In this document: one piece after another, positions 1,417 through 61,886 of the stretch
Position numbering within the stretch: the stretch's first letter is position 1
Layout: each line of letters begins with the position of its first letter
Assembly: GCA_046292385.1 (NCBI GenBank)
Contig: JBKBRF010000018.1
Coordinates: 1 to 64,000 of the forward strand
From: Armatimonadota bacterium
GTDB lineage: Bacteria > Armatimonadota > SYMT01
Reading direction: 5' to 3'
DNA: 64,000 nt
The notes under the pieces: model-generated
The model's input: only the letters and a program-made list of their open reading frames with translations
Told to the model about the DNA's origin: nothing
The model's database searches: none
Position numbers and translations under genes: made by a program

Positions 1417-1579
1417 GAAGGGCCGGGAGGCAGCCCGTGAGCTCTGCCGATGTGGGGATCACGGCTGCGGGGAGGGAAGAGCGGACCGTTACCAATTCCC
1501 GGAGCGGCCCGCTAACGAAGCGAAGCGGAGGGCCCGCGTCGCGGGAGGGCTGCCTCCCGGCACAAGGGCACGGGGTCGG
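1417..1579 (+). repeat. Structured intergenic repeat element, copy 1 of 4 (candidate ncRNA/MITE)
   Basis: 15-bp stem 1422-1436/1547-1561; shares CCCGTGAGC, GAGCGGCCCGCTAAC and ACAAGGGC.CGGGGTCGG motifs with copies at 35.4, 61.3 and 61.65 kb. Confidence 0.8.
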
Positions 1580-1627
1580 CCTCTCCTGGCGAGCGTCGCT
1601 ACCGAACGCCTCCGAAACCGTGGCCAC

Positions 1628-2113
1628 CTACAGCAAATACGAGTCGATCAACTCCCACCGCACCTCCCCACTCGACCCCAGCCGGTAGCGGAGCAGGGCC
1701 ACTCCGGCTACGTGGCCGTCCTCGAATGGGGCGACCACCCACTTCGGTCCCAGCACCCGGACTTCGTCCTCTAGGAAGAACATCCTGCCGCCGAGGACCG
1801 GCTTCGCCGGAATCAGCTCCGGGTGCTTCACCAGGTCGGCGATGATGCGGGGATACTCGCTCTCCGGCACCTCCTCGGCGATCTCCGGCTCGCGCTTCGC
1901 ACCGCCAGCGGCCGAACCCTCCGGCTCTCCACTCCCCGCCCGGGCCGCCTGCAACTCGGCGGCAAGCCGGGCGGCCTCCGCTCGCGCGACCCGCTCACCG
2001 AGAACGGCGGACGCGGCCCGGCCCTGCAGGAGATACAGCCCAAACGTGCCGCCCACCACCAGGAGCGCTACCAGCAGTCCAAGAACCCCAAACCTCGCTC
2101 GACCCGACATCAC
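1628..2113 (-). CDS. Hypothetical protein with N-terminal membrane anchor
   Basis: N-terminal hydrophobic helix, coiled segment, compact beta-rich C-terminus (FEDGH). Confidence 0.7.
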   Translation of the reverse strand: MMSGRARFGVLGLLVALLVVGGTFGLYLLQGRAASAVLGERVARAEAARLAAELQAARAGSGEPEGSAAGGAKREPEIAEEVPESEYPRIIADLVKHPELIPAKPVLGGRMFFLEDEVRVLGPKWVVAPFEDGHVAGVALLRYRLGSSGEVRWELIDSYLL

Positions 2114-2187
2114 CCGCCACCTTTCCGTGGGACCACACGCCCGCGGCGACCACCCCGAATGCGGATCGTCTCACGGGCAACCCAGGA

Positions 2188-2727
2188 TCACACCGGCTTC
2201 AGCCTCTCGTGCGGCTCCTCCGGCAGCTCCACCCGAATGGCATCGCCGGGGCGCACCTCGCCGCCGGTCAGCACCACCGCCATGATGCCCGCCTTTCGGA
2301 TCAACGTGCCATCCTCGGCGTGGTCGAGCACCGCCGCCATCAGGCCCGGCCGTAGACCGTCGAGCTGCGAGCAGGGATTCCGCAGTCCGGTCACCTCCAG
2401 CACCGCCGCGTTTCCCACGTGGAGACGGGTGCCGCGCGGCAGCGCGAGGAGGTCGACTCCTCGCGTGGTGACGTTCTCCCCCATCTGCCCGGGCGAAAGG
2501 TCAAAGCCGCGCCCGCGCAGCTCGTCGTGCAGCTCCGCGTGGATCAGGTGGACCTGCCGCAGGTTCCGCGGCAGCGGCCTGCGGGTCCACCGGGAGCGGT
2601 GCTGCACCGTCTCTCCGTAGTGCGCGTCGCCCTCCACCCCGCGCCCGGCGACCAGCCGGATCATCTCCCGACTGAGCTTACCGACCCCATGCTTGGGACT
2701 GGAGCTGACCGCGATCACTTCTCCCAT
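2188..2727 (-). CDS. MOSC domain protein
   Basis: GVEGDAH, RQVHL, GENVTT, RNPCxQL, GDAIRV motifs typical of MOSC. Confidence 0.9.
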   Translation of the reverse strand: MGEVIAVSSSPKHGVGKLSREMIRLVAGRGVEGDAHYGETVQHRSRWTRRPLPRNLRQVHLIHAELHDELRGRGFDLSPGQMGENVTTRGVDLLALPRGTRLHVGNAAVLEVTGLRNPCSQLDGLRPGLMAAVLDHAEDGTLIRKAGIMAVVLTGGEVRPGDAIRVELPEEPHERLKPV

Positions 2728-2772
2728 CTCAGCTCTCCCAGGCCGCAGCGTCTCCGCCTCCGCGCACGCGGA

Positions 2773-3384
2773 TCAGAAATGGAAGTGGTACTGACGCACC
2801 TTCACGCGCCAGTCGCCGTCCACCCGCTCCAGGTAGAGGAGCGCGTCGGCACCGTGGAAGTTGCTGCTCCAGGTGAAGGGCAGCCACACCATCGCGCTCT
2901 TGCCGTCTTGCGCATAGCCGGGCGGCAGCGCCGCGAAGTGCTGATGCCAGTCGCCGCGCTCTTCGCGAGTAACTCGGATCACCCGCGGATTCGCCGGACG
3001 GAACTCGGTTGGACTCTCCCCCGCGGCGGCCCGCTCCGCGAGGTGTCGCTCCGCCTCTTTGAGCGCCGCCTTCTGCTCCGGCGTCAGGGGGTCCACCCGC
3101 TTTTGGTCCGTAAACTTCGGCATCAGCCCCACGCCCCGGGGCTCAGGGGGCGGAACGTAGAGGGCGATCACCGGCTTCCTCTCTCTCGTGACTTCCAGGT
3201 GGGCCTCGGAGTCGTCGAGAATGTACGCCAGCGCGGCGTTCAGCACCGCGGCATCCCGCGCCTGCTTTTGCCTGACCGACAGCTCGTCCGGCTTCGACGG
3301 AGACCGGACCGAGGCGCTCGTCCGGCAGCCGATGCTCCCGGCGAGAATCAGGATCAGGATGGTGAGGGCTCGGCTCCGGGGCAT
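2773..3384 (-). CDS. Hypothetical lipoprotein
   Basis: Hydrophobic leader ending in lipobox-like SIGC; RBS GGAGG upstream. Confidence 0.7.
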   Translation of the reverse strand: MPRSRALTILILILAGSIGCRTSASVRSPSKPDELSVRQKQARDAAVLNAALAYILDDSEAHLEVTRERKPVIALYVPPPEPRGVGLMPKFTDQKRVDPLTPEQKAALKEAERHLAERAAAGESPTEFRPANPRVIRVTREERGDWHQHFAALPPGYAQDGKSAMVWLPFTWSSNFHGADALLYLERVDGDWRVKVRQYHFHF

Positions 3385-3423
3385 CGTGCGAACCTCCGTG
3401 TAATGCTGGTCTCCCCGTGGGGG

Positions 3424-5724
3424 TCAGAATGCGAGCGCGTTGGTGTTGCCGTTCACCTGGAAGGCGGCCCAGAAGTACGGCGCCGGCTTCGTCTGCTTCA
3501 CCGCGAGCATCGCCTCTCGAAGGGCCTCGTCCTTGCGCTTTCCTTCTTTCAGCGCGCCGTAGAACGCCGCCATCAGCCTTCCGGTGGCTGCGTCGTCCAC
3601 ACTCCACAGGCTGGCGACGACGCTCGGACACCCGGCCGCGCGGAACGCCCAGGTGAGTCCCAGGAGGCCCTCTCCGCCGCTCTTCTGACCCTGGCCCGTG
3701 TCGCAGGCGGAGAGCACCGCCAGGCGCGCCGCGAGCTGCATGTTGACCAGCTCGGCGGCCTCCAGGAACACCTCGTCCTCTCCCTTCTCCGGGGCGAGCA
3801 GCAGCCCGGAGCAGAGTCCATCCTCCTCGTCGAGCAGGCCGTGCGTGGCGAAGTGGAGGATCGCGGACCGGCTGAGCTCCGCCATCACCTGCCGCCTGGT
3901 GGCGGCGGCACCCACCAGCACCCGGGCACCTGGGACCAGGGCGGCCACCGCCCGGGCTTCTTCCCGGGCGGCGGGCAGCGGCGTGGAGCCCGGCACCTCC
4001 GGATCGGCGGCGATCAGGAGCGGGGTGGAGGCGTTCGGCCGCTCGTCTGGCCAGAGCAGCACGGAAAGCGACACGGAGACCGCCACCGGAAACCGCTCGA
4101 CCAGCCGCTTTCCCTCTCCGTCGAGGATGGCGCCGTAGGGCACTTCCAGCAGCGGACCATCCCCGATCAGGACGAGCCGGCTGTGCCGTCCGGGCGCCAG
4201 CAGACCTGCCTTTTCCACGGCAGAGAACAGCGACGTGTAGAGCGCCTTTGCCGCGGCCGCTTCCGGTCCGGCCTGCTCTTTCTCGATCGCGCTCCGCCAG
4301 GAGGCGGCCTGCCTGTGGATCGCCTCCTCACCCACGCCGAGCACGAAGCTCTGGATTCCGTCCTTCTGGCTGACCGCGAAGAGGAGGGAAGTCTTCTCCG
4401 CACCGACCGCCCACTGCAGGTAGAGGGTGTCCGGGTTCTTCTCCGCCAGCTCTTCGAAATCGGCCGGCTGGGGCGGTGTGGCCCCGCTCATGCGGCGGTA
4501 GGCCGGGTACCGGTTCGCCAGATCGGCCCGCAGCGCGGTTAGCTGCCGGTCGGCTTCTTCGTAGCGGCGCCGGATCGCCAGCACCTGCTGCTTCAATCCG
4601 GTGGCAGGACCCTCATCCGCCAGCGCCTCCAGCCCGTCCACCTGCCGGAGCGCCTCACTCGCCGCGTTGAACGCCGCCAGGGCGGTCTGGAGCCGCCGCG
4701 CATCGATACCGCCCAGCACCCGCGCGTAGTCGGCCCGGTTCTGCGCCGCCTGCCGCGCGAGACCCTGCGCGCGGCCCCGCTCCAGGATCGCGAGCGCCTC
4801 CCCCGGCTTGCTCTGATTGACCAGCACGTGCGCATACCGGCGGTAGAGGGAGGCGCGGAACCAATCCTGGTAATCTCCGACTTTGCTGGCATCGCGGACT
4901 TCGCGACTGATCGCCTCGTGGTGCAGGATCGCCTCCGCGAACGCCGCGGCGGCGGGCTCCAGCTTGTTCTGATCGAAGTAGATCAGCGCCAGGTTAGTGA
5001 GCCGCCCCGCCAGGGTGTCCCGCGAGGCAAACTGGCGCTCCAATTCCAGCGCCTGGGTGAGGTAGCGGGTGGCGAGGTCGTAATCGCCCTTGGCCTTCCC
5101 CGTAACCCCCAGGTTCCCCAGCACGCGGGAAATCTCCCGGAGATCCCCGGTGGCTCGGATCACCTCCAGGGCCCGGAGCTGCACTTCCAGGGCTCGATCG
5201 AACTGCCGCTGCCGGGAGAAGACCTGGCCCAGGCCATCCATCGCCGCCGCGTAGCCGCGCCGGTCCCCGCGAGCCTCCTCGATCTTCGCCGACTCGCTGA
5301 AGTACTGGAGCGCGGACCCGAGCTGACCCGTCTTGGCCGCCAGGGTGCCGAGACTACTCAGGATGTTACTCAGGGCCGGCAGGTCGGATTCGTCAGTCAG
5401 CGACAGCGCGCGCTCGTAATAGTCGAGCGACTTCTTATCCTGGCCGAGAGTCCGGGAGACCAGACCGAGGTTCATCAGCGCCGTCCGCACGCCGCGCGCG
5501 TCCTGCAGGCGCTGGAACAGCTCCAGCGAGTCCTGGAAATACCGGGCCGCCTGGTCGTAACGTCCGGCCTGGAACGCCTTGGCGCCGAGATCGTTCAGGG
5601 AAGCGGCTGCGGCACGCGGATCCTGCTGTGCGCGCACGGACCCACCTGCCAGGAGCGAGAGGAGCACGAGAACGAAGAGCAGACCTCGAGGTGCCCGGGC
5701 GAGCAGTGTCATGACGATCCTCAC
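3424..5724 (-). CDS. Secreted TPR-repeat + CHAT (caspase-like) domain protein
   Basis: Signal peptide; several TPR repeats; CHAT motifs HFATHG, LSACDTG, SLWSVDD, PYFWAAF. Confidence 0.9.
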   Translation of the reverse strand: MRIVMTLLARAPRGLLFVLVLLSLLAGGSVRAQQDPRAAAASLNDLGAKAFQAGRYDQAARYFQDSLELFQRLQDARGVRTALMNLGLVSRTLGQDKKSLDYYERALSLTDESDLPALSNILSSLGTLAAKTGQLGSALQYFSESAKIEEARGDRRGYAAAMDGLGQVFSRQRQFDRALEVQLRALEVIRATGDLREISRVLGNLGVTGKAKGDYDLATRYLTQALELERQFASRDTLAGRLTNLALIYFDQNKLEPAAAAFAEAILHHEAISREVRDASKVGDYQDWFRASLYRRYAHVLVNQSKPGEALAILERGRAQGLARQAAQNRADYARVLGGIDARRLQTALAAFNAASEALRQVDGLEALADEGPATGLKQQVLAIRRRYEEADRQLTALRADLANRYPAYRRMSGATPPQPADFEELAEKNPDTLYLQWAVGAEKTSLLFAVSQKDGIQSFVLGVGEEAIHRQAASWRSAIEKEQAGPEAAAAKALYTSLFSAVEKAGLLAPGRHSRLVLIGDGPLLEVPYGAILDGEGKRLVERFPVAVSVSLSVLLWPDERPNASTPLLIAADPEVPGSTPLPAAREEARAVAALVPGARVLVGAAATRRQVMAELSRSAILHFATHGLLDEEDGLCSGLLLAPEKGEDEVFLEAAELVNMQLAARLAVLSACDTGQGQKSGGEGLLGLTWAFRAAGCPSVVASLWSVDDAATGRLMAAFYGALKEGKRKDEALREAMLAVKQTKPAPYFWAAFQVNGNTNALAF

Positions 5725-5887
5725 GGAGAGCGGCGACCAGCCAGGCCGGAGTAAGACCGCTAACAGGTTCTGCTATCCGTCGGAGAGTCCTGCGCTGCGG
5801 TAGAGTCGCCAGCGGGGTGCGACCAGCAGAGGACGGCACGCCCGGGTGTTGAACGGGACCTCAGCCCCTGTCGCCCCGAGGTCCCGC

Positions 5888-7213
5888 ATGCACGCCCTCA
5901 AGTTGCTCCTCACCCTCCTCGCCCTGGCGTTCCTCACGCTCGTGGGCGGCGCTCCCCTACCCGCCGGCGCGGGCGGCGCCCGGCGCCCGCCGAACATCCT
6001 GTTGATCGTCTCCGACGACCAGGCGTGGACCGACTACTCCTTCATGGGGCACCCGCAGGTCCGGACGCCCCACCTGGACCGCCTCGCTTCGCAGAGCCTG
6101 CAGTTCACGCGCGGGTACACGCCCTCCAGCCTCTGCTGCCCCAGCCTCGCCAGCATCATCACCGGGCAGTACCCGCACCAGCACGGCGTTACCAGCAACG
6201 ATCCGCCGATCCCGCCCGGCATGGCCGCCGCGGAGTTTCCGCGGAGCCGGGCGTTCCGGGAAGGCCGGGAGGCGATGAGCCGGCTGATCGACCGCGCGCC
6301 GACCCTGCCGCGGCTCCTCGGGGAGAACGGCTACCAGAGCCTCCAGACCGGCAAGTGGTGGCAGGGCGACTTCCGCCGCGGCGGCTTCACGCACGGCATG
6401 ACGCGAGGACAGCGGCACGGCGATGACGGCCTCGCAATCGGGCGGGAGACGCTGCAGCCTGTCTACGACTTCATCGAGGACGCGCGCCGCCGGGAGAAGC
6501 CGTTCTTCGTCTGGTACGCCCCGATGCTCCCGCACACGCCGCACAACCCGCCGGAGCGGCTGCTGGCGAAGTACCGGGACCAAGCGCCCACCGCGGCGAT
6601 CGCGAAATACTGGGCCATGTGCGAGTGGTTCGACGAGACCTGCGGCGCGCTGCTGGAGCACCTGGACCGGCAGGGGCTGGCCGAGGAGACGATCGTCGCC
6701 TACGTGACCGACAACGGCTGGATCCAGGACCCGGATGCGGAGCGGTTTGCGCCGCGGTCGAAGCAGTCGCCGTACGACGGCGGCCTCCGCACCCCGACCC
6801 TGCTCCGCTGGCCCGGCCGGGTCGAGCCGCGCCGTTCCGAGCGGCCGGTGCTCTCGATCGACCTCGCCCCCACCCTGCTCCAGGCCGCGGGGGTGAAGCC
6901 GCCGCGCGAGATGAGCGGGATCGACCTGCTCGACCGGAAGAAGGTCGAGACCCGGAAAACGCTCTTCGGCGAGTGCTTCACGCACAACGCGGTCGACCTG
7001 CAAAACCCCGCCAGCAGCCTCCGCTGGCGGTGGGCGCTCCGGGACGGCTGGAAGCTGATCCTTCCGGCCCCGCAGAACGAGCCGGACGGCAGGCCGGAGC
7101 TCTACCGCGTCGACCGCGACCCCCACGAGAAGCACAACCTGGCCGAACGGGAGCCGGAGCGCGTGCGGGCGCTAACGCGCGCCCTCGACCACTGGTGGCC
7201 GGGGGCGCCGTAG
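5888..7213 (+). CDS. Sulfatase family protein (variant CxPxL motif)
   Basis: PNILLIVSDD, RTPHLDRLA, LCCPSLASIITG, GKWW, TDNG, DPHEKHNLA; signal peptide. Confidence 0.9.
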   Translation: MHALKLLLTLLALAFLTLVGGAPLPAGAGGARRPPNILLIVSDDQAWTDYSFMGHPQVRTPHLDRLASQSLQFTRGYTPSSLCCPSLASIITGQYPHQHGVTSNDPPIPPGMAAAEFPRSRAFREGREAMSRLIDRAPTLPRLLGENGYQSLQTGKWWQGDFRRGGFTHGMTRGQRHGDDGLAIGRETLQPVYDFIEDARRREKPFFVWYAPMLPHTPHNPPERLLAKYRDQAPTAAIAKYWAMCEWFDETCGALLEHLDRQGLAEETIVAYVTDNGWIQDPDAERFAPRSKQSPYDGGLRTPTLLRWPGRVEPRRSERPVLSIDLAPTLLQAAGVKPPREMSGIDLLDRKKVETRKTLFGECFTHNAVDLQNPASSLRWRWALRDGWKLILPAPQNEPDGRPELYRVDRDPHEKHNLAEREPERVRALTRALDHWWPGAP

Positions 7214-7228
7214 TCCAGACTGGTAGGG

Positions 7229-7328
7229 ATTCTCCGCCGCCCCTCCGGGGCGGAGGGTCTTCGGGCGGGAATCCGGGGGCTGCGCTGCGCATTGCCCCCG
7301 GCTAATCTCCTTCGCCCCTCCGGGGCTA
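7229..7328 (-). repeat. REP-like element (GCCCCGGAGGGGC..TAGCCGGGGG..CCCCCGG..GCCCCGGAGGGGC)
   Basis: Three hairpins; same architecture as 46194-46281 beside the IS200-like TnpA remnant. Confidence 0.65.
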
Positions 7329-7456
7329 ACGGGTTGCGGGAAGTCGCTGACACGTTTTTCAGTGGAGTTCTCAGCCGCGCAAGCGGGCTTCGCTCCGTGT
7401 AGCCTCGACTTTAGTCCGAGGCGAAAGCGGCCAGTCACTCCAGCGTACCCCCTAGC

Positions 7457-8386
7457 TTACGGTTTCGGATAGTCGCGCCACAGCCAGCGCATGATCTCCG
7501 GCAGGAGGGAGCCGCCGTGGTCGTCCGAGTGGCCGCCTTCGCCGAAGACGGACTCCAGGTCGTAGCCCTTCTCCTTGAGCGCAGCGACCATCGCCTGGTT
7601 CTGCAGGTACCAGTCGCGGTCCGGGCGGTTCGGGCTGCGGTTGTCGTGGATGCCGTCCTGCAGGTAGATCCGGATCGGCTTCTTTTCGGACTGGCGCACC
7701 AGCTCCGGGTAGACGTGACCGCCCCGCAGGTTGGTGAAGCTGCCGATCAGGGAGATCACCTTACGGAACTCGTTCGGCCGCTCCCACGCCACGGTGAAGG
7801 CGCAGATGGCGCCGCTGCTGGCGCCGCCGATGGCGCGGCCCTCCGGGTCTTTCGTGAGGTTGTAGCGCTTCCCGACCTCCGGCAGCATCTCCTCCACCAG
7901 GAAGCGCGCGTAGGCGTCGCCGAGGGAGTCGTACTCCACGCTCCGGTTGTTCGGGTTGCGCAGGCCCAGCTCTTCCGGATACTCCTCCCCGCGGTGGCCC
8001 GGCGTAATGAAGATCCCGATCGTGACCGGCATCTCCTTCCGATGGATCAGGTTGTCCAGTACGTTCTGCACCCGGAGCACGCCGTTCGGGTTGGTCGCCC
8101 GCTGTCCGTCCTGGAACACCAGCACGCAGGCCGGCTTCTCCGGGCGGTACTGCGCGGGGACGTAAGTCCAGTACCGTCGCACGGTACCGGCCAGCACCTG
8201 GCTCTTGAACGGAAGCGGCCCCTCCAGCGTACCCTTCGGCACCCCCTCCTGCGGGAAAGAGTCCGGTCCCAACTCGTACCGCTTCGGCTGCGGCGGGGCA
8301 TCCTGCGCGGCTGCCGCGGCGGGCAGACAGGCGGAGGCGGCGCCCCCGAGCAGGAGCGCGGCGGCGGAGCGGCGGGTGATCTTCAT
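7457..8386 (-). CDS. Enterochelin esterase-like alpha/beta hydrolase with Tat-like leader
   Basis: Leader MKITRRSAAALL; VFQDG, nucleophile GASSG, GEGGH; the ORF-track extension to 9055 overlaps the MBL gene. Confidence 0.85.
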   Translation of the reverse strand: MKITRRSAAALLLGGAASACLPAAAAAQDAPPQPKRYELGPDSFPQEGVPKGTLEGPLPFKSQVLAGTVRRYWTYVPAQYRPEKPACVLVFQDGQRATNPNGVLRVQNVLDNLIHRKEMPVTIGIFITPGHRGEEYPEELGLRNPNNRSVEYDSLGDAYARFLVEEMLPEVGKRYNLTKDPEGRAIGGASSGAICAFTVAWERPNEFRKVISLIGSFTNLRGGHVYPELVRQSEKKPIRIYLQDGIHDNRSPNRPDRDWYLQNQAMVAALKEKGYDLESVFGEGGHSDDHGGSLLPEIMRWLWRDYPKP

Positions 8387-8469
8387 CGTCGTGGACCTTT
8401 CCAGCACCGGTGCAGGGTCTGTCACCCCTCCTGGGAGGAGGTTCCACGACCTCAACGAATCCTCCTCGC

Positions 8470-9354
8470 CTACGAGGCCTTGCGATAAGCGCTTCCGTCT
8501 TCGGCCCTGGTCGGCTGCTCCGCGTAGCGGCCGTGCTCCGGAACGGCGACCTGCCGGAAGTCCCGCGCCAGCGCCGTCAGGGCGGCCCGCAGCGCCTCGC
8601 CCTGCATCGCGCGGCCGTGGCCGGTGACCGCCACCTCCGGCGACAGCGCGGCGAGCGCTCGCACCGACTCCTCCGCCTGCTCCCAGTTCTGGGTGTAGTA
8701 CATCGGCGGACCGTGCATCTCCGGCTCCTGCGTGAGGGCGGCGTACGCCGACTCCTGCCGGGTGGTGATGAAGGCGTCGCCGGCGATCAGCAGCCGCCGC
8801 TCCGGGTGCCAGAAGGAGACGTGACCGGGCGTGTGACCGGGTGTGTGCAGCCACTGCCAGCCCGGCATTAGCGGCAGCGAGCCATCCTCCGGCAGCGAGA
8901 GGAGCCGCTCGCCGACGTTCACCGGTCCTCGCGGGTAGAGCGGCGAGAGCGCCGCCATCATGCCGCCGCCCACGCTGGGATCCGGCGGCGGATACGAGGC
9001 GCTGCCGTTCAGGTACGGGTGCTCCAGGTCGTGCGCGTAGACGGGGACATTCCACTCCTCCGCCAGCTCTTCCAGCGCGCCCACATGGTCGAAGTGCCCG
9101 TGCGTCATCACGATCGCCGCCGGGCGGGTATCGCCGAAGCGCGCCTTCACCGCGGAGCGGAGCATGGCGGTCGTGCCCATCACCCCGGCGTCGATCAGCA
9201 CCCAGGAGCCGTCGCCCGCGTGCGGCAGGCCCCAGTAGACCACGTTCACGATCGCCAGGCGCTGGTAGGCGAGGTCGGGCGCCAGCTCGTGCACGCCGTC
9301 CGTCTCGTGCTCGGCGGCGCGGGCAGAAGCGTGGAGCGGAATCTGGTGACTCAT
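8470..9354 (-). CDS. MBL-fold metallo-hydrolase
   Basis: LIDAG, THGHFDHVG, TPGHTPGH, GDA, GHG motifs. Confidence 0.9.
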   Translation of the reverse strand: MSHQIPLHASARAAEHETDGVHELAPDLAYQRLAIVNVVYWGLPHAGDGSWVLIDAGVMGTTAMLRSAVKARFGDTRPAAIVMTHGHFDHVGALEELAEEWNVPVYAHDLEHPYLNGSASYPPPDPSVGGGMMAALSPLYPRGPVNVGERLLSLPEDGSLPLMPGWQWLHTPGHTPGHVSFWHPERRLLIAGDAFITTRQESAYAALTQEPEMHGPPMYYTQNWEQAEESVRALAALSPEVAVTGHGRAMQGEALRAALTALARDFRQVAVPEHGRYAEQPTRAEDGSAYRKAS

Positions 9355-9452
9355 CGCGGACCTCAGAAAGCTATTCTGAGGTCCGCTCTACCCGGTCCCA
9401 TCCGCCGCGCAAACGTCGAGTGACTGTTTCGAAGGGCGCTCCGGATCCGGGG

Positions 9453-33113: not shown

Positions 33114-33302
33114 CGCTGCCTCCTTTCGTTTCTCCTTCTATAGATACCCCGACGAAGGGGCGCGCACTTCGGTTCTGCCTCGGCACGCCGGGGTTCGTGC
33201 GTTCCACGTGCCGGTACGGTAAGACTGAGGCGTCGGCGCCTTACCGGCAAGCGTGGGCAGCGGAGCGAGAAAGACTTGAGCACAGAGAGCGGGACCGAAC
33301 GG

Positions 33303-35207
33303 ATGGGCTTTGACGGACTGCGGGTGGTGGCCCTGGAGAGCCGCCGCGCGAAGGAGATGGAGTCGATCCTCCGCAGCTACGGCGGCGAGCCGCTGGTAGC
33401 GCCCTCCATGCGGGAGCTGCCGCTCGACGAGAACGCGGAGGCGTTCGCCTTCGCGGAGAAGCTGCTGGCGGGAGAGATCGACGCCGTCATCTTCCTGACC
33501 GGAGTCGGCGCGCAGGCGCTGGTCCAGGCGCTCGAGTCGCGCTACAGCCGGGACGAGATCGTGGATGCCCTTTCCGGCGTCACCACCGTGGCACGCGGAC
33601 CGAAGCCGGTGAAGGCGCTGCGAGAGCTTGGGGTGCCGGTCGGTCTCACCGTCCCGGAGCCGAACACCTGGCGCGAGATCCTGGAGACGCTGGAAAGCGA
33701 GCCGCGCGGGATCGACCTGAAGGGCGCCCGGATCGCCGTGCAGGAGTACGGCCTGCCGAACGACGCGCTGACCGACGGCCTCCGCGAGCGCGGCGCGGAA
33801 GTGACGACGGTCCGCGTCTACCGCTGGGCGTTGCCGGAAGACCTGGAGCCGCTGCGAGACGCCATCCGGGAGCTCGCCGAAGGGCGCGCGCAGGTGCTCC
33901 TCTTCACCAGCTCCAACCAGGCGACCCACCTGCTGCAGGTCGCCGCGGAGATGGGGCTGGAGGCGCCGCTTCGAGACGCGCTCGATCGGATCGTCGTCGG
34001 CTCGATCGGGCCGACCTGCACCGAGACGCTGACCCAGTACGGTATTCCGGTCGACGTGGAGCCGGAGCATCCCCGCATGGGGCACCTGGTGCGCGAAACG
34101 GCGGAGCGCGCCGGCGAGATCCTGAAGCGGAAGCAGTCCGCCCCCGCCGCGCCGCGCGCCTCCGCCCCCGCGGCCGAGCCGTGGAACGACGCCCCGTTTC
34201 TGAAGGCGTGCCGCCGCGAGCCGACCCCCTACACGCCCGTCTGGCTGATGCGACAGGCCGGCCGCTACATGCAGGAATACCGGGAGGTCCGCGCCCGCCA
34301 CAGCTTCCTGGAGCTCTGCAAGAACCCGGAGCTCGTGGCGGAGGTGACGGTCTTCGCCGCGGAGCGGATCAAGGCGGACGCCGCCATCATCTTCGCCGAC
34401 ATCCTGCTGATCGTGGAGCCGCTGGGGCTGAACCTGGAGTACAGCAAGGGGGACGGCCCGGTCATCTCTCCCGTGATCCGGGAGAGCGCCGACATCGACC
34501 GGCTCTGCGAGGTCGATCCCGACTCCCTCTCCTACGTCTACGACGCGGTCCGCGCCACCCGCCAGGCGCTCGATCCGAAGACGCCGCTGATCGGCTTCTG
34601 CGGAGCGCCGTTCACCCTCGCCTCGTACATGATCGAGGGCGGCGGCTCGCGAAACTACGAGAATACGAAGTCGCTGATGTACCGCGACTCCGGCGCCTGG
34701 CACGCGCTCATGGATCGGATCGCCCGGGGGCTGATCGGTTACGTGAACCGGCAGGTCGAAGCCGGGGCGCAGTGCATCCAGATCTTCGATAGCTGGGTCG
34801 GCTCCCTCGGGCCGGAGGACTACCGCGAGTTCGTGCTCCCCCACTCCCGCACCCTGATCCAGGGCATCACCCCCGGTGTGCCGGTGATCCACTTCGGCAC
34901 CGGAACCGGCACCATGCTGCGCGACATCCGGGATGCCGGCGGCGACGTGATCGGCCTCGACTGGCGCACTCCGATCGACCGCGGCTGGGCGGAGGTGGGG
35001 TACGACCGCGCCGTCCAGGGCAACCTCGACCCGCTGATCCTCTTTGCGGAGCCGGAGTATATCGAAAAGCGCGCCCGGCAGATCCTGGACCAGGCGGAAG
35101 GCCGCCCCGGCCACATCTTCAACCTGGGCCACGGCATCCTGCCGAAGACCCCCGTCGACCACGTGGTCCGGCTGATCGAGTACGTCCACGAGTACTCCAG
35201 CCGCTGA
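33303..35207 (+). CDS. hemE: Uroporphyrinogen-III synthase / uroporphyrinogen decarboxylase fusion (HemD-HemE)
   Basis: N-half HemD (LESRR, FLTGVG, ARGPKP, VYRW, FTSS, SIGP); C-half HemE (PVWLMRQAGRY, GAPFTLASY, QIFDSW, QGNLDP, FNLGHG). Confidence 0.92.
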   Translation: MGFDGLRVVALESRRAKEMESILRSYGGEPLVAPSMRELPLDENAEAFAFAEKLLAGEIDAVIFLTGVGAQALVQALESRYSRDEIVDALSGVTTVARGPKPVKALRELGVPVGLTVPEPNTWREILETLESEPRGIDLKGARIAVQEYGLPNDALTDGLRERGAEVTTVRVYRWALPEDLEPLRDAIRELAEGRAQVLLFTSSNQATHLLQVAAEMGLEAPLRDALDRIVVGSIGPTCTETLTQYGIPVDVEPEHPRMGHLVRETAERAGEILKRKQSAPAAPRASAPAAEPWNDAPFLKACRREPTPYTPVWLMRQAGRYMQEYREVRARHSFLELCKNPELVAEVTVFAAERIKADAAIIFADILLIVEPLGLNLEYSKGDGPVISPVIRESADIDRLCEVDPDSLSYVYDAVRATRQALDPKTPLIGFCGAPFTLASYMIEGGGSRNYENTKSLMYRDSGAWHALMDRIARGLIGYVNRQVEAGAQCIQIFDSWVGSLGPEDYREFVLPHSRTLIQGITPGVPVIHFGTGTGTMLRDIRDAGGDVIGLDWRTPIDRGWAEVGYDRAVQGNLDPLILFAEPEYIEKRARQILDQAEGRPGHIFNLGHGILPKTPVDHVVRLIEYVHEYSSR

Positions 35208-35903
35208 TTTTTCGACACAGAGGGACACAGACGAACCAGCAGAGGAACACAGCGCGGCTGATGCCGCAACCAAACTCACGGCGGCGGGAGAAAGAGTCTC
35301 TCGGCGAGATCGTCATCGCTCCGGGAGTCCACCCCGCGCCCTCCCCGCCCTGCGGGCGCAAAGCTGGTCGTGCTGCACCGGCTTGGGGCAACCCGCCGGC
35401 TGCCGACCGCGCCCAGACCCGAGGCGCCCGGAGGGTGCCAGTTGTGACCACCCCTGGCAGGGGTGGTAGCTCGAAGGGTCGGGAGGCAGCCCGTGAGCTC
35501 CCCTGTCGGCACGGGTTACGCTTCCTGGCGCGGGAAGGGCTTCTCGACGAAAGCTCCCGCAGCGGCCTGCTAACGGAGCGCAGCGGAGTGTGAAAAGGCC
35601 GCGGAGGGCCTTCGTCGCGGGAGGGCTGCCTCCCGGCACAAGGGCTCGGGGTCGGGTTACGGGATCGATTCTGCAGCTCGAAGAGAAGCAAAAGCGCCAC
35701 ACAACTGGCACCCTCCGGCTCCGCGCGGCGCAGGCGCGCGATGACCACCAGCAAAACCTGCGCATCCCGGCCCGACTCTCGCGGTGAGTAGTACAGAGCC
35801 TTTAGGATTGGGCGGTACCCGCTGTGGCGTTGGCACGCTGCAGTCCGTGCCGGAGATCTGTGTCTGTTCTGTCGGTTCTTCTGTGTCCCTCTGTGTCGAA
35901 AAA
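35208..35903. mobile_element. MITE-like segment bounded by a perfect 24-bp inverted repeat
   Basis: TTTTTCGACACAGAGGGACACAGA (35208-35231) and its reverse complement (35880-35903); no convincing ORF inside. Confidence 0.55.
35421..35655 (+). repeat. Structured intergenic repeat element, copy 2 of 4
   Basis: Stem 35478-35492/35623-35637; leading CCACCCC..GGGGTGG hairpin; conserved internal motifs. Confidence 0.8.
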
Positions 35904-35911
35904 CTCCACCC

Positions 35912-36442
35912 CTACCGGCCGGGACCCGGCTGGAACCTCCGCTGCCGGGGTGGTCCGAACGGCGCCGCGCCTGGGTCGACGAGGTGATACTCCGCAGCCC
36001 GCTGGACGTGCCAGCGGCCCCACCGGTACCGCAGCCGCATCAGGTAGCGTGTGGTGGCGACGTCGTAGACGCACGCGCTGGCGCGGAGATCGACCACGAA
36101 CGGGCCTCGCCACTGCAGGTCGCCGGCACGGAGCAGCACCCACGGCGGGGCGTTGGCGGTGCCGCTGGTCCAGGCGGGGTCCGCCGACGGGCAGGCCGAG
36201 ACCTCCTGCACGGTGGCGCCCGCTCCCCCGAACCGCGCCAGGAGCGCGCGGGGCGGGTCCACGTCGTCCTCAGGGTGACTCGAAAGGTAGTAGGCGCCCG
36301 GCGAGGGGTTCTGGCGCTCCATGAGGTGCCGCAGCGCCGCCTCGCGGACCGCGGCGTCCTGCATCACGGGCCAGTTCGCGATGTAGACGCAGCCGCCGAG
36401 AACCACCGCGAGAGCGATCCCGAGCCGGACGATACGCCGCAT
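35912..36442 (-). CDS. Hypothetical membrane-anchored protein
   Basis: ATG with GGAG RBS; N-terminal hydrophobic helix. Confidence 0.6.
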   Translation of the reverse strand: MRRIVRLGIALAVVLGGCVYIANWPVMQDAAVREAALRHLMERQNPSPGAYYLSSHPEDDVDPPRALLARFGGAGATVQEVSACPSADPAWTSGTANAPPWVLLRAGDLQWRGPFVVDLRASACVYDVATTRYLMRLRYRWGRWHVQRAAEYHLVDPGAAPFGPPRQRRFQPGPGR

Positions 36443-36527
36443 TGCCTCTCCCCTTAACAGACTAATAATACAAGGGTTTCCGCGCATGCATGAGCGCACG
36501 ATTCTGATCGACTACCGGGTCCCTCCG

Positions 36528-36660
36528 CAGACAGGAGAGGGACACCGAGGGCGCAGGGAAAACACAGACCTCAGGCGGGGTCGCCACCGGTAGATCCAGA
36601 AGCCCAAGAGCCCGGAAGTTCTGTGTTCCTCTCGTCTGTTCTTCTGTGTCCCTCTGTGTC
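36528..36660. repeat. ACACAGAG/CTCTGTGT palindromic element
   Basis: 36620-36660 closely matches 35858-35898; degenerate inverted partner at 36528-36570. Confidence 0.6.
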
Positions 36661-36666
36661 AAGCAA

Positions 36667-38163
36667 ATGAAGCTCCTCGCAATCGACCTGGGTGCCAGCG
36701 GCGGGCGCGTGCTGGCGGCAACTCTCTCCGGGACCGGATCCGGGCACTCGCTCGAGCTGTCGGAGGCGCACCGGTTCCCACACGGGCCGATCCCACTTCC
36801 CCGGGCCGGCGGCGTCACCTACTGCTGGGACGCCGTGCTGCTCTGGAGCGAGGTTCTGAGCGGCTTGCGGAAGGCCGGCCACGAGCACGGACGCGTGGAG
36901 AGCGTGGGGGTCGACACCTGGGGAGTCGACTTCGGACTCCTCGACCGCCAGGGCGGCCTGCTCGCCAATCCGGTCAGCTACCGGGACTCCCGCACGGACG
37001 GCATGATGGAGCTTGCCTTCTCGCGCGTCTCGCGAGACGAGATCTTCCGGCGGACCGGCCTCCAGTTCATGCCGCTGAACACGCTCTACCAGCTCCTGGC
37101 GCTGAAGGAGCAGGACTCGCCCACGCTGCCGCTGGTGGAGCGGATGCTGCTGATTCCGGACCTGCTCCACTACTGGCTCTGCGGCAGCGAGACGGTGGAA
37201 TACACCAACGCGAGCACCACGCAGATGCTCGACTCCCACAGCCGCTCGTGGGACCTGGAGCTGCTCCGCCGGCTGGAGGTCCCCCACTCGTTTCTGCCGG
37301 AGATCGTCCCGGAGGGGAGCCGCCTGGGGCGGCTGCGGGCGGTGGTGGCGGACGAGACCGGCCTCTCCACCCGGGTGCAGGTGATCTGCCCCGCCACGCA
37401 CGACACCGGCTCCGCCGTGGTGGCGACACCCGGAGAGGGTGCCGATTGGGCGTTCTTGAGCGCCGGCACCTGGTGCTTGTTCGGGGCGGAGGTCGACCGC
37501 CCGTACCTCGACCCTGCCGTGCTGGAGGCCGGGTTCAGCAACGAGGGCGGCGTACGCGGGACGACGCGGCTGCTGCGGAACATCACCGGGCTCTGGCTGG
37601 TGCAGGAGTGCCGCCGGTACTGGGCTTCGCAGGGGGAGAGCTACTCGTATGCCGATCTGGCGGCTCTGGCGGCGGGGGCCCGGCCGTTCGCAGCGGTGCT
37701 CGATCCGGACGACCCAGGCTTCGCGCAGCCGACCCGAATGCCGCACGCGATTGCGGACTACTGCCGGCGGACCGGGCAAGCGGTCCCGGAAGGTCCGGGC
37801 GAGCTGGTCCGTGTAGCGATGGAAGGCATCGCGCTTACGGTGCGCCGGCGCTGGGAGCAGCTCCAGCGCATCCTGGGCCGGCGCCTCTCCGTGCTGCACA
37901 TCGTCGGTGGAGGCACGCAGAACACGCTGCTCTGCCAGCTCATCGCCAACGCGCTCGGCTGCCCCGTGCTGGCCGGACCGACGGAGGCGACCGCGATGGG
38001 CAACGCGCTGGTGCAGGCGGTCGGGCTCGGCGCGCTCGATTACTCAGAAGCGCGGCAGGTAGTCCGCCGCTCCGTCACGCTGGCGGAGTACCGGCCGGAG
38101 GAGACCGGCGCGTGGGACGAAGCCTACGGGCGCTACCTCGCGCTGTTCGAGCCGAAGGGCTGA
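36667..38163 (+). CDS. rhaB: Rhamnulokinase family (FGGY) sugar kinase
   Basis: AIDLGASGGR, GVDTWGVDF, YRD.RT, NTLYQL, HDTGSAV, NITGLWL.QE, GP.EATA.GN. Confidence 0.88.
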   Translation: MKLLAIDLGASGGRVLAATLSGTGSGHSLELSEAHRFPHGPIPLPRAGGVTYCWDAVLLWSEVLSGLRKAGHEHGRVESVGVDTWGVDFGLLDRQGGLLANPVSYRDSRTDGMMELAFSRVSRDEIFRRTGLQFMPLNTLYQLLALKEQDSPTLPLVERMLLIPDLLHYWLCGSETVEYTNASTTQMLDSHSRSWDLELLRRLEVPHSFLPEIVPEGSRLGRLRAVVADETGLSTRVQVICPATHDTGSAVVATPGEGADWAFLSAGTWCLFGAEVDRPYLDPAVLEAGFSNEGGVRGTTRLLRNITGLWLVQECRRYWASQGESYSYADLAALAAGARPFAAVLDPDDPGFAQPTRMPHAIADYCRRTGQAVPEGPGELVRVAMEGIALTVRRRWEQLQRILGRRLSVLHIVGGGTQNTLLCQLIANALGCPVLAGPTEATAMGNALVQAVGLGALDYSEARQVVRRSVTLAEYRPEETGAWDEAYGRYLALFEPKG

Positions 38164-50549: not shown

Positions 50550-50574
50550 GCAACTGGGGGCGTACCTCGGCGGA

Positions 50575-52102: not shown

Positions 52103-52209
52103 TTACAGGTTGGCGTGGGCGTTATCAGGTTCACAGGTTGCAAGTTGCAGGTTCCGAACCCCGGACGCGGGGGCTCCAACCTGAAACCTGCTAACCTGCC
52201 AACCTGCAA
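52103..52209. repeat. CAGGTT/AACCTG palindromic element
   Basis: Same architecture as 15702-15790. Confidence 0.75.
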
Positions 52210-52219
52210 TAAGCCTCTC

Positions 52220-56127: not shown

Positions 56128-56245
56128 AGGAGACTGCGTTTCGAAGCCGCGCAGGCAGGACCACAGGACGCCTGTGCCGGCGTACTCTGTGAGAACCCCG
56201 CCCGGTGGCAGGGTTTCTCGTTTCTGACACTTATCGCCCGGGCAC

Positions 56246-57211: not shown

Positions 57212-57384
57212 CGGGAGGTCTCCAAAAGGGTCACACCACTAACGAAGCAGTTCGCAGCGCCGCGAGGGAGTTCCTACCGTGAGCAAGATGGAAGAGGGGA
57301 GATGGGAGAGGAAAGAGCGCTCGTCGGAGGTGTGTGCGGCCGGGCGCGATTTCGGTGGTCGTGAATGGGGTGCAATAATGGGGT

Positions 57385-57430
57385 GCAATAAGGAAGGGCA
57401 GGCGAGTCTTCGCCTGCCCTTCCTTATTGC
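57385..57430. terminator. Perfect 21-bp hairpin downstream of the sulfatase gene
   Basis: GCAATAAGGAAGGGCAGGCGA-GTCT-TCGCCTGCCCTTCCTTATTGC. Confidence 0.6.
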
Positions 57431-57465
57431 GTTCTGGTCTCCGGAATGGAATGGCGGGGTGGGCG

Positions 57466-59028: not shown

Positions 59029-59293
59029 AATTAAGAGACGCCTCGATATCTGTGGCCGAGAAAAGTCCTGGGAGTATGTTGTCGAGTCTGCCGGAGAGCG
59101 CTTCGAAGTGACCGCCCGCCAGATCGGCCGGGACGATCCGACCTATCTCTGCTCCTGCGGGGTCTGCGTGGAAGGCGAGAACCCGCCCGAGCTCTTCTTT
59201 TTGCCCGACTTCAATTCTCCGTGCGTGCACATCGCGGAAGCGCAGCGGGACCTCAGCATCGCTCGCCAGGCTGCCGCCCAGATGGTCAACTGA
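59021..59293 (+). CDS. Small SWIM-type zinc-finger protein
   Basis: Strong RBS GGAGGAGG; V.S.G..F.V...CSC....PCVHI (CxC..CxH). Confidence 0.7.
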   Translation: MPIIKRRLDICGREKSWEYVVESAGERFEVTARQIGRDDPTYLCSCGVCVEGENPPELFFLPDFNSPCVHIAEAQRDLSIARQAAAQMVN

Positions 59294-59311
59294 ACGCTCG
59301 AGGGACAGGCC

Positions 59312-59390
59312 GTTAGCAGGTGGACAGGTTGCAGGTTCGGACCCCGCTTAGCGGCGGCAAACCTGCAGCCTGGTTACCGGCAAACCTGAA
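59312..59390. repeat. CAGGTT/AACCTG palindromic element
   Basis: Degenerate fourth copy. Confidence 0.6.
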
Positions 59391-59546
59391 GCCAGTCCCA
59401 GGCTCGCTCCCCTGCTTCTGCTCCCTCGATTCCGCCTTGCGGGCCTCTCCCGCCCTCATCGGATCAGACCCGCGCCTAGCCTGGCGCGTTCCCGGGTTGC
59501 CGGGGCGCGCCACTGTTTGCGAAGATTCTACTCACCCGCGGTTCGG

Positions 59547-59575
59547 TTGACGCTCCCGCGGGGCTTGCCTATACT
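59547..59575 (+). promoter_or_regulatory. Sigma70-type promoter of guaB
   Basis: TTGACG-17 nt-TATACT. Confidence 0.7.
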
Positions 59576-59623
59576 TCCCCAAATACCAGGAATGACACGG
59601 CGAGCGAGATGGCAGGAGGTCGC

Positions 59624-61144
59624 ATGAGCACGCTGGTCGAAGCCCAGCTCGACGGGGTCGACGCGGAAACCTTATTTAGTTCCGGGATCGGCCTGACGTA
59701 CGATGACATCATCATCCTCCCCGGTTACATAGATTTCCCCTACACTGACGTCCGCCTCGAGACGCACCTCACCCGCAATATCCGCATCAAGCGTCCCCTC
59801 GTCAGCTCCCCGATGGACACGGTGACCGAGTCACAGATGGCCATCACGCTGGCACTCCTCGGCGGGATCGGCATCCTCCACTACAACAACTCCGTCGAGG
59901 AGCACGTGGAGATGGTCCGCAAGGTGAAGCGCTACGAGAACGGCTTCATCACCGACCCGGTGGCGCTCTCCCCCAACCACCAGATCCACCACGTCGACGA
60001 GATCAAGGCGCGCCACGGCTTCTCCGGGATCCCGATCACCGAGGATGGGACGCTCTCCACGCGGCTGGTTGGGATCGTCACTAACCGGGATACCGACTTC
60101 ATCAAGGACCGGAGCTGCCCCCTGCGCGAGGTGATGTCGACCGACCTCATCACCGCGCCCAAGGGGATCACCCTGAGCGAGGCGAACCGGATCCTCCGCT
60201 CCACCAAGGTCGGCAAGCTGCCGGTGGTCGATGAAAACGGCCGGCTGGTGGCGCTGGTGGCCCGGCGCGACCTGCTGAAGAACCAGAACTTCCCGGACTC
60301 CTCCAAGGACGCGGGCAAGCAGCTCCTCTGCGGCGCGGCGGTCTCTACCCGGGACGAGGACCGGGAGCGGGTCGACGCCCTGGTGGAGGCGGGCGTGAAC
60401 GTGCTGGTGGTCGACGCCGCCCAGGGGCACTCGATCTACCAGCAGCGGATGCTCGCCTACATCAAGAGCCGCCACTCGCACGTCGACGTGATCGCCGGCA
60501 ACGTGGTGACCACGCAGCAGGCGGAGACGCTGATCCACAGCGGAGCGGACGCCCTCCGCATCGGCATGGGTCCCGGCTCCATCTGCATCACGCAGAACAT
60601 GATGGCGGTCGGCCGGCCCCAGGCGACCGCGGTCTACAAGACCGCCGCCTTCGCCCGCCGCTACGGCGTGCCGGTGATCGCGGACGGCGGCGTGAACGGC
60701 ATCGGCCCGATGTCGAAGGCGATCGCCCTCGGCGCCAGCTCCGTGATGGTCGGCAACCTGCTCGCCGGCACCGCGGAAGCCCCCGGCGAGTACTTCTACG
60801 AGAACGGCGTCCGCGTGAAGCGCTACCGCGGCATGGCGAGCCTCGAAGCGATGGAAGTGGGCGGCGCCAAGCGCTACCTCTCCGGCGAGCGGGACGTGGT
60901 GAAGGTGCCCCAGGGCGTCACCGGCACGGTGGTCGACAAGGGCTCCCTGGTCGACTACCTCCCCTACCTGATGAAGGGCCTGCAGCAGTCGCTCCAGGAC
61001 ATGGGCTTCCGGGACATCCCCTCGCTCCATACCGCCCTCTGGGACGGCCGCCTCCGCATGGAGCGCCGCACCCCGAACGCGGCGGCGGAGGGCAGCGTCC
61101 ACAGCCTGGTCAGCTACCAGCAGCCCCGCTTCGGCATCCGCTAG
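59624..61144 (+). CDS. guaB: IMP dehydrogenase with CBS domains
   Basis: [35 protein letters not shown] pair. Confidence 0.96.
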
Positions 61145-61166
61145 AGTCCGGGGTTTCTTGGGAGTT

Positions 61167-61201
61167 GCAGGGCCGTCCGGTGGGACGGCCCTGTGCTTTT
61201 T
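61167..61201 (+). terminator. Rho-independent terminator after guaB
   Basis: CAGGGCCGTCC/GGACGGCCCTG stem followed by a T-run. Confidence 0.8.
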
Positions 61202-61311
61202 CTGGGTCGAATCGCGGGTTTGTCGGCGGGGCGGAAGGCAGCGATGTCACCGCCGGTTCGCCCCCGCGCCCCCTCACTTGCTCGTCGCACAGCAGCGACC
61301 ATCCCGAGCGT

Positions 61312-61500
61312 CCGACCCCGCGCCCTTGTGCCGGGAGACAGCCCTCACGCGACGAAGGCCCTCCGCCGGCCCTCCCACGCCCTTCGGGCTAACGGGCCGC
61401 TCCGGAAGTGCGCTCCGTTGAGCTCATCCCGCGCCACCCCGCCCTACCACGACAGAGGCTGAGTTCACGGGCCGCCTCCCGGCCCACCCGTACGGGTGGT
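61312..61500 (-). repeat. Structured intergenic repeat element, copy 3 of 4
   Basis: Reverse-complement copy; stem retained with two G-U pairs. Confidence 0.8.
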
Positions 61501-61649
61501 AAACCTTCGAGCGTCCCGAAAGCGTTCGGGACACATGTGGCGCCCTGCGGGCGCCTCGGTTTCTGGCTTCTACCCAGGCGGCGCGTCATCTCACTTGACG
61601 CTGGCACTATCGGCGGGCGGCCTGCCTATGGAGTCCGGAGGCGGTGCCG

Positions 61650-61886
61650 GAGGCAGCGACGGAGGGCTCCACTTGTGGCCACCCCTGGCGAGGGGTGGCT
61701 GCTTGAGCCGAGGGGAGCGGCCCGTGAACCTCGGCATGGTGGAAAACGTGGTTGTCGATCGCGGAACGCAGCATGGCGGGGATCACGCCCGGAGCAGCCC
61801 GCTAGCGGAGCCGAAGGCGGAGCGTGAATGGGCAGCGGAGGGCCAGCCACGCGGGAGGGCCGCTCCCCTCGGTGAGGGCACGGGGA
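61650..61886 (+). repeat. Structured intergenic repeat element, copy 4 of 4
   Basis: 16-bp stem 61708-61723/61857-61872 of different sequence; same flanking motifs and leading hairpin. Confidence 0.75.

Follow-up and report, generated by a model that had tools for sequence, protein, structure and literature searches.

A family of intergenic elements with a large covarying fold and two paired arm types in Armatimonadota: a candidate modular mobile element

Most intergenic repeats of bacteria are short hairpins or the decaying remains of transposons. Here, a 64,000-nt stretch (the window) from an Armatimonadota bacterium (GTDB lineage SYMT01; assembly GCA_046292385.1, contig JBKBRF010000018.1, positions 1 to 64,000 of the forward strand) is analysed, in which an earlier note, made from the letters alone, had described four copies of a structured element of a family that it did not recognise, as a candidate non-coding RNA (ncRNA) or non-autonomous mobile element. 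The window's own genome (G000) is a 7.04-Mb assembly of 91 contigs, the window being contig C18. The closest described systems are the repetitive extragenic palindromic (REP) sequences and REPINs, reportedly coupled to RAYT (Y1 HUH) transposases, the ERIC/IRU, Correia/NEMIS, BOX, RUP and bcr1 repeats, the palindrome-associated transposable elements (PATEs) of the IS200/IS605 group with omega and HEARO RNAs, and the structured RNAs raiA, ROOL, GOLLD, OLE and HEARO, all of which have Rfam entries.

Like REP/REPIN sequences, the elements are intergenic, lineage-restricted and persistent over long times, fold on one strand, number in the tens to hundreds, and have an inverted doublet as the repeated unit (30 here, the youngest amplified unit being a doublet), single arms being left over. 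In contrast with the 20-40-nt palindromes of REP arms, however, the arms here are multi-helix folds of ~285 nt with 61 modelled pairs, they differ in type within 27 of 28 classifiable doublets, conservation extends to many unpaired nucleotides, and no RAYT gene is flanked by elements. The ERIC, Correia, BOX and bcr1 kind of repeat is likewise non-coding, modular, dispersed, 100-300 nt long, foldable if transcribed and variably present among relatives, but the elements generally lack terminal inverted repeats, no target duplication was seen at them, and they show strong covariation, signs of purifying selection on old copies and heterotypic doublets. The youngest unit, its ends read by eye, recalls PATEs in its asymmetric ends with subterminal hairpins and ACAG at both, and in a large structured RNA that would read toward the element end; it differs in that neither a cognate TnpA with these ends nor a TnpB nor an Rfam match was found, and in that both orientations occur at one locus, with two outward RNAs instead of one. 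Finally, raiA, ROOL, GOLLD, OLE and HEARO are similar in size, multi-helix build, conserved junctions and a fold supported by covariation, whereas the present elements reach 147 per genome, behave as modular and mobile, form head-to-head pairs and are confined to very narrow taxa, and none of these RNAs matches.

The family is thus rated as belonging to none of these kinds (REP/REPIN-RAYT systems, repeats resembling miniature inverted-repeat transposable elements (MITEs), IS200/IS605 derivatives or orphan ncRNAs), its distinctive features being the size and complexity of the fold, two cognate arm types, conserved unpaired nucleotides with apparent purifying selection on old copies and the absence of a cognate enzyme from our searches. 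It departs from the usual intergenic repeats in its large covarying fold, its conserved unpaired nucleotides, its two paired forms in more than one genus and the selection seen among recent copies. The best explanation is a lineage-specific family, and the reading that we favour, with confidence about evenly divided for and against, is a modular non-autonomous mobile element built on a doublet of two arm types (A and B), whose outward-transcribed arms would give folded RNAs kept by selection and which would spread through an enzyme acting at ACAG-bearing ends.

Copy number, fold and strand of the element

The earlier note had placed copies at 1417-1579 (+), 35421-35655 (+), 61312-61500 (-) and 61650-61886 (+). 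All four are present on these strands and intergenic, as judged from open reading frame (ORF) calls by a heuristic based on third-codon-position G+C (GC3) and not by a gene finder, in a window of 69% G+C, and they align with each other over a common set of blocks. An iterated nhmmer profile, which was used to place the copies and to count the family genome-wide, finds no further copy within the window. The length of ~170-240 nt ascribed to the element is too short: the conserved core measures ~285 nt and begins 5' of the CCACCCC hairpin, where an extra conserved hairpin and a CACTTGTGA motif are found. The count of four holds for the window, whereas the 7.04-Mb genome has 147 matches, 125 of them near full length (from profile position 25 or lower to 260 or higher). 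Scores exceed 160 bits in 114 of the 147 and fall below 140 in 22, and the 125 copies form 93 clusters at 85% identity (greedy clustering), with only three clusters of 7-13 members, i.e., the copies are old yet mostly intact. Copies are clustered on contig C8 (159 kb), with 22 matches at 6900-98300, among them nine doublets that cut it into segments of 2-16 kb, and eight same-strand copies lie inside 27 kb at C40:13600-40100.

The fold was derived from an alignment (A1) of 46 sequences, namely three window copies, 40 diverse copies of other contigs and three metagenome homologues. RNAalifold predicted 46 pairs, 22 of them with compensatory changes, and the 61-pair model used below consists of the RNAalifold structure with the 5' hairpin added by hand. 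In A1, 93.1% of 2728 cells are paired, compared to 81.1% in shuffles and 35-48% when the 3' partners are slid; 31 of the 61 pairs are changed on both sides (335 cells), and none of 500 shuffles reaches any of five pairing measures. The closing stem has 10 of 15 pairs doubly changed (e.g., UA 20, GC 13 and AU 10 at one pair) and hairpin P1 has seven of nine. The closing stems of the window copies read as the earlier note had quoted them, perfect in copy 1, with differences compatible with G-U pairs in copies 2 and 3, and different but fully compensated in copy 4, and the lack of covariation that the note had named, along with a lack of transcription, as a ground for abandoning the idea is not what the family displays. 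A second alignment (A2), made of 27 homologues that come from metagenomes and two further genera and of which 24 were not used for the model, has 92.1% of cells paired and 39 of 61 pairs doubly changed, with 0 of 500 shuffles reaching these values and slid controls at 40-47%, figures that the fitting of A2 to the model favours somewhat. The predicted fold is therefore strongly supported by covariation.

Three parts make up the core, the 5' hairpin, P1 and a three-way domain whose closing stem is long and variable. It would start with a hairpin built as stem-GGA-stem-GGA(loop)-stem-GGA-stem and the conserved CACUUGUGA, continue with hairpin P1 (CCACCCC/GGGGUGG), GCUCGA and the long variable closing stem, and enclose within the latter a junction with CCCGUGAAC, variable hairpins and GCGCGGGAAG, followed by an inner stem accompanied by a GGA/GGA internal loop, GCUAGC...GUGAAAG and GGAGGGCC-N5-CGCGGGAGGGC; the 3' strand of the closing stem and AGGGCNCGGGG complete it. 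A module of the form 'stem - GGA/GGA internal loop - stem' occurs three times in the core. A pseudoknot scan by mutual information gave no safe extra pairs, the signal of the A and B subfamilies being dominant.

Strand-specific selection on a single-stranded fold, as the earlier note had proposed, is borne out by the strong covariation and by the wobble pairs. Among 8875 cells (71 RNAalifold pairs on 125 copies), 563 are G-U or U-G and 130 are A-C or C-A; since A-C is what G-U becomes on the other strand, the G-U excess implies that one strand is selected. A particular U-G wobble persists in 43 of the 46 A1 sequences and in 26 of 27 outside homologues. The RNA of copy 2 has a predicted folding energy of -144.6 kcal/mol (z -2.73) against -121.8 kcal/mol (z -1.93) for its complement.

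Substitutions in the two youngest subfamilies (A and B, 13 copies each) were counted against the subfamily consensus, with site classes set from all other copies. Variable unpaired sites have 0.105 (A) and 0.148 (B) changes per site per copy, rates that alignment error in variable regions may somewhat inflate, compared to 0.037 and 0.026 for paired sites and, for conserved unpaired ones, 0.018 and 0.026, so that paired and conserved sites change 3-6 times slower than variable ones. A standard pair is kept in 41 of 66 paired-site changes in subfamily A and in 32 of 47 in subfamily B. Together with the many old intact copies, the slower change of paired sites suggests that purifying selection acted on the fold once the copies had been amplified.

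Arm types, doublets and unit ends

By their cores, 74 copies are of type A (GCUCGA-A/C-GG...), 64 of type B (GCUUGAGCC...) and nine are untyped, the arms of the two types being ~56-70% alike. The 147 copies include 30 neighbouring head-to-head pairs, whose 5' ends are separated by 37-83 nt (model coordinates) except in three pairs with a partial or truncated copy and in one A+A pair at 200 nt. Of the 28 classifiable doublets, 27 are A+B and one is A+A, two more being untypable; about 12 are copies of one young unit, and the older doublets are A+B too. No tail-to-tail pair exists among the 147 copies and only four other close arrangements do. Heterotypy extends to the genus of a second genome, G005, where four of four doublets combine the two types, with partner identities of 0.56-0.60 against 0.62-0.80 within type, one arm being narrowly assigned. 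The G-U excess holds for each type read on its own sense strand (G-U:A-C of 253:88 in A and 288:33 in B). As the sense strands of A and B are opposite in a doublet, two divergent transcripts fit better than one single-stranded DNA intermediate, and it is mainly this excess on opposite DNA strands in both arm types that leads us to prefer RNA over DNA as the selected molecule.

Young doublets have ~810 nt in common, and similarity is lost abruptly on both sides. Their right end is a terminal module (T module), a small hairpin followed by ...GGTGAGTAGTACAG, which has 26 occurrences; 24 of these adjoin an element, being placed either on the same strand after a type-A arm or on the other strand before a single type-B arm. 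The end on the B side, ...CAGCCGCGCTGTG, occurs in six of six aligned doublet B arms and in five of eight single B copies, two of the remaining ones having a diverged form of it and one a different tail. Read on one strand, the young unit is thus CACAG...TACAG, carrying B alone or B plus A. Its left end, as read by eye, is CACAG with GCGGC-TGAT-GCCGC, and its right end an AGAATCT...AGATTCT hairpin and then ...GAGTAGTACAG; the two ends are not mutual inverted repeats, each has a hairpin close to it, and the motif ACAG occurs both at the left junction and at the right end. Only five of 125 copies, all from the young subfamily, show the 5' motif again in inverted form (18 nt, at most three mismatches) ~271-275 nt downstream. 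The flanks of young doublets often have short tandem tracts of ACAGA type that abut the ends (e.g., C8:52800-52830), and those of the 12 young doublets share no direct repeat except such ACAG-type tracts.

Presence and absence at an orthologous site is seen in a syntenic trio that comprises genes for a PfkB kinase and a NIF3 protein and one neighbouring gene (identity 65-73%, the spacers being unalignable): the PfkB-NIF3 spacer is 1137 nt long with a doublet in G005 and ~155 nt without one in G000. The sharp ends of the young subfamily, this site and copy numbers of 147, 15, 8 or 0 within one taxonomic family bear out the note's suggestion of a candidate mobile element.

Distribution, candidate partners and competing explanations

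A BLAST search with copy 2 against 40 relatives gave no match, while a covariance model (R1; 301 positions, 61 pairs) was later positive in two of these. With R1, the elements were found in three of 151 genomes of the phylum, i.e., G000 and two of the six other genomes of its taxonomic family, and in none of the remaining 144 phylum genomes, which were searched with stricter filters than those within the family. The full search gives 147 copies in G000, 15 in G005 (9.1 Mb) and eight in G006, and none in the four others of the family, one of which, G001, belongs to the same genus as G006. The pattern GGAGGGCC-N5-CGCGGGAGGGC has 29 loci in GTDB species genomes, none of which is a homologue (nhmmer, E 1; one 11-bit partial match), none in viral contigs and 26 in metagenomes, six of which are homologues; a distant BLAST search of a plasmid collection gave no match. 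Around the copies of the two relatives lie 71 ORFs, 33 of which have a G000 homologue (E 1e-30 or better). Few of these homologues have an element within 3 kb, and at none of the 33 is an element found at the same junction in both genera. A full-text literature search returned no paper on such a repeat in Armatimonadota in its listings and the beginnings of abstracts, and to our knowledge there is almost no experimental RNA biology for this phylum.

The relatives show two further arrangements. In G006, three full and two half copies form a tandem array with a period of ~430-600 nt (L146, C47, 3400-5000) that follows a large AMP-binding/PP-binding gene. Two type I-E CRISPR arrays of G005 by cas1, cas2 and cas6e (L143, C3:824000-842999, 6500-13000) contain four copies, each of which is framed by repeats as a very large spacer would be, occupies the array end where the repeats are degenerate and shares its strand with the cas genes; a second repeat-framed sequence ('X', ~390 nt) is present in these arrays. 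From the orientation of type I-E repeats as we take it to be, the copies are co-oriented with CRISPR transcription, and if the arrays were transcribed to their ends, the embedded copies would appear as sense RNA that Cas6e sets free. No CRISPR repeat of G000 lies near an element; its arrays at C28:80940-81972 and C58:23081-24117 have 15 repeats each of one 37-nt repeat ending ATTGAAAC, in opposite orientations, and a solitary repeat-like match is found at C13:53245-53281.

As to known families, Rfam 15 at gathering scores gives a single match in the whole window, outside the elements (see below), and at E values up to 10 the regions of copy 2 and of copies 3 and 4 give only mir-7147 (16.9 bits, gathering 90) and HTT-AS1_3 (12.8 bits, gathering 70), with no match to HEARO or IS605-orfB in the window or in the element regions. 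The family thus stays unrecognised, and a match to a known Rfam family, which the earlier note had named as the result that would speak against its proposal, did not appear. Several candidate classes were set aside: a sponge of CsrB/RsmZ type, since CsrA (PF02599; control positive in three of 14) has no match in G000 even if GGA motifs are frequent; a retron or group II intron-type RNA, reverse transcriptase (PF00078) having no match in this genome, which is 98% complete; a classical MITE derived from a DDE element, terminal inverted repeats being generally absent (5 of 125 copies); and a REP/REPIN-RAYT system, the arms not being short copies of one sequence and no RAYT gene being flanked by elements. 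Among 221 ORFs flanking the elements of G000, no protein family is enriched, the largest cluster having six members.

Under the reading that we favour, the basic unit would be a head-to-head A/B doublet with its arms pointing outward, single arms being derivatives; the two arms would be transcribed divergently from the centre of the unit, selection would keep the folded RNAs (probably RNA rather than a DNA strand) intact, and the DNA unit would spread by an enzyme that recognises the asymmetric ends with their subterminal hairpins and ACAG junction. If the arms are transcribed, they would represent a new class of large structured RNA of unusually high copy number and a test case for a selfish repeat and a functional RNA being one thing, and the alignment and covariance model open the way to probing, cleavage assays and searches for protein partners. 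A number of observations weigh against it. No mobilising enzyme for the elements was found in G000 in searches for TnpB, reverse transcriptase, Y1 and IS110 proteins. The TnpB zinc ribbon (PF07282) has no match there (control positive in eight of 14), while the equal result for RRXRR/IscB (PF14239) is uninformative because the control was positive in no genome. The five Y1 (HUH) transposase loci (C51:25920-26261, C22:55627-55965, C40:62344-62622, C83:9901-10122 and C5:163128-163307) are flanked by other multi-copy short repeats, which recur on many contigs, and by no element match; they look like REP/RAYT-type systems separate from the element family, none of the 26 T modules lies at a Y1_Tnp locus, and Y1 genes, present in six of seven genomes of the taxonomic family, do not track the element. 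In the nhmmer list, no element match falls close to either of two IS110 loci (PF01548), so that the look for a neighbouring HUH, IS110 or reverse transcriptase gene that the earlier note had suggested finds the first two kinds in the genome but none by the elements. No sigma-70-type promoter was found in the spacer of copies 3 and 4 or upstream of copy 2, the promoters of this phylum being uncharacterised. Defined ends are seen for the young subfamily alone (26 T modules against 147 copies), and orthologous spacers do not align between genera. G-T wobbles form in single-stranded DNA too, and the mostly intact state of old copies is better explained by selection at each locus, i.e., a host function, than by pure selfishness of the element.

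The main alternative is that the copies are ordinary multi-copy genes for trans-acting structured RNAs with promoters of their own, which grew in number by duplication, are not transposable and form divergent gene pairs where they occur as doublets. Intact old copies, conserved unpaired motifs and the 3-6 times slower change of paired and conserved sites all agree with it, as do a fold kept across genera at low copy number (15 and 8), the conserved heterotypic doublets, the tandem arrays of G006 and the four G005 copies that are co-oriented with cas genes and flanked by repeats that Cas6e could cut, the orientation again being assumed. However, 147 copies are far beyond any trans-acting RNA gene family known to us, and a young unit with sharp ends and swapping modules, positions unshared between genera, the complete absence of copies from one of two congeners (G001 and G006) and the lack of a conserved promoter among our observations do not sit well with it; we therefore regard it as possible but doubtful. 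A role as cis-acting RNA or DNA punctuation like REP, ERIC or BOX, which would stabilise, terminate or insulate neighbouring mRNAs, agrees with the strictly intergenic position (many copies lie 8-140 nt from a gene end), with the very stable fold and with a doublet offering one sense arm whichever side transcription enters. Yet the elements show no preferred orientation towards the genes beside them (35/35/34/32 over the four possible arrangements, with no gene on one of the sides of 11 copies), and convergent, divergent and tandem spacers number ~35, 32 and 69, about the random expectation of 1:1:2, so that the copies have no bias towards gene 3' ends. The gene that precedes copy 3 ends in a terminator of its own (61166-61195), and the conserved unpaired nucleotides and three-way junction exceed what a stabilising hairpin needs, all of which makes such a role unlikely.

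It is also conceivable, if very unlikely, that the element acts at the DNA level, as single-stranded or cruciform DNA recognised by a recombinase or nucleoid protein and without a functional RNA. attC sites and REPINs are indeed strand-specific DNA folds with conserved structure and variable sequence, the inverted doublet recalls a REPIN, and Y1 transposases are encoded in G000. But in doublets the strand under selection in A is the opposite DNA strand from that in B, arms only ~56-70% alike would make a poor long hairpin of REPIN type, the strictly kept U-G wobble and the GNRA-like junction motifs are typical of RNA, and the Y1 genes are flanked by other repeats. The least probable of the explanations weighed here takes the arms as scaffold RNAs of an RNA-guided mobile system, similar to omega or bridge RNAs, whose outward 3' ends would extend into the flanks and provide guides there, with ACAG as the target-adjacent motif and a partner protein that is unrecognised or lost. 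In its favour, both arms point outward to the unit ends, which are asymmetric, have subterminal hairpins and share ACAG (left junction and right end), and the RNA-like scaffold is large and conserved; against this, TnpB (PF07282) has no match in G000, Rfam HEARO and IS605-orfB do not match, and exact 10-mers of the core recur as often in the flanks of other copies as in those of the copy itself, both downstream (60 vs 61.2 of 125) and upstream (91 vs 91.0 of 125), in a test that does not reach a guide lying wholly in the flank. As a speculative extension of the mobile A/B element, which we consider rather unlikely, the doublet may be a novel mobile unit free of protein genes whose two different outward structured RNAs, one per end, aid its own spread or retention, as ribozymes or as scaffolds or guides for an enzyme that the host encodes or that has escaped recognition. 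If true, the TnpB/IscB omega-RNA and IS110 bridge-RNA systems would have in it a counterpart made of RNA only, and the CRISPR-embedded copies of G005 would be a second route of expressing and processing the same RNA.

The window copies and their surroundings

Copy 1 (1415..1600, +; 90.2 bits, model positions 66-271; these and the following bounds are those of nhmmer) is a type-A core that lacks the 5' part, i.e., both the 5' hairpin and hairpin P1 (CCACCCC), and lies between the convergent gene ends at 1389 (+) and 1628 (-). Copy 2 (35416..35690, +; 218.8 bits) is a complete type-A core between gene ends at 35207 and 35912, with P1 at 35448-35466 and a closing stem in which 35478-35492 pairs with 35623-35637. 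The repeat around it is larger, spanning ~35350 to 35796, and consists of the A arm, a linker and the T module without a B arm. The upstream segment (35350..35415, +), as defined by an alignment of 16 subfamily members with their flanks, is part of the spacer in doublets of the same subfamily, the B arm being absent here, and the linker with the terminal T module of the young subfamily occupies 35691..35796 (+), the module itself being located at ~35750-35796 (match at 35774-35796) as a small hairpin followed by ...GGTGAGTAGTACAG, after which likeness to other copies stops at 35796. Contigs from four sequencing runs compared with 33300-37300 are fragmentary; one of them, with a joint from 35236 to 35880 around copy 2 (side 22, likeness threshold 88), is a possible element-free allele, of low support and too weak to use.

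Copies 3 and 4, which the earlier note had called back to back, are indeed adjacent, but more precisely head-to-head, with facing 5' ends 68 nt apart, and they form an A/B doublet. Its left arm is copy 3, a type-A core (61278..61567, -; 138.5 bits, with alignments and typing) with an additional small hairpin inserted ahead of P1, its right arm is copy 4, a complete type-B core (61636..61920, +; 192.1 bits, with typing), and the spacer between the 5' ends, which was inspected by sequence and promoter scan, is 61568..61635. The doublet is bounded by a gene end at 61144 and by the start of the next gene at ~62016 (+). A canonical intrinsic terminator at 61166-61195 (+), with a 13-bp stem and a T run to ~61205, follows the gene ending at 61144 and precedes copy 3, which indicates that the organism uses ordinary terminators and that copy 3 is outside that transcription unit.

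Elsewhere in the window, the single Rfam match at gathering score is an Acido-Lenti-1 RNA at 7273-7327 (+; 40.4 bits, gathering score 37, E 1.1e-05), unrelated to the elements. Intergenic spacers of G000 and G005 are full of ~7-nt tandem tracts, some of them in inverted arrays (CAGGTT..., CGCATCA..., ACAGA...), as seen at C55:5960-6110 and L144 8230-8530.

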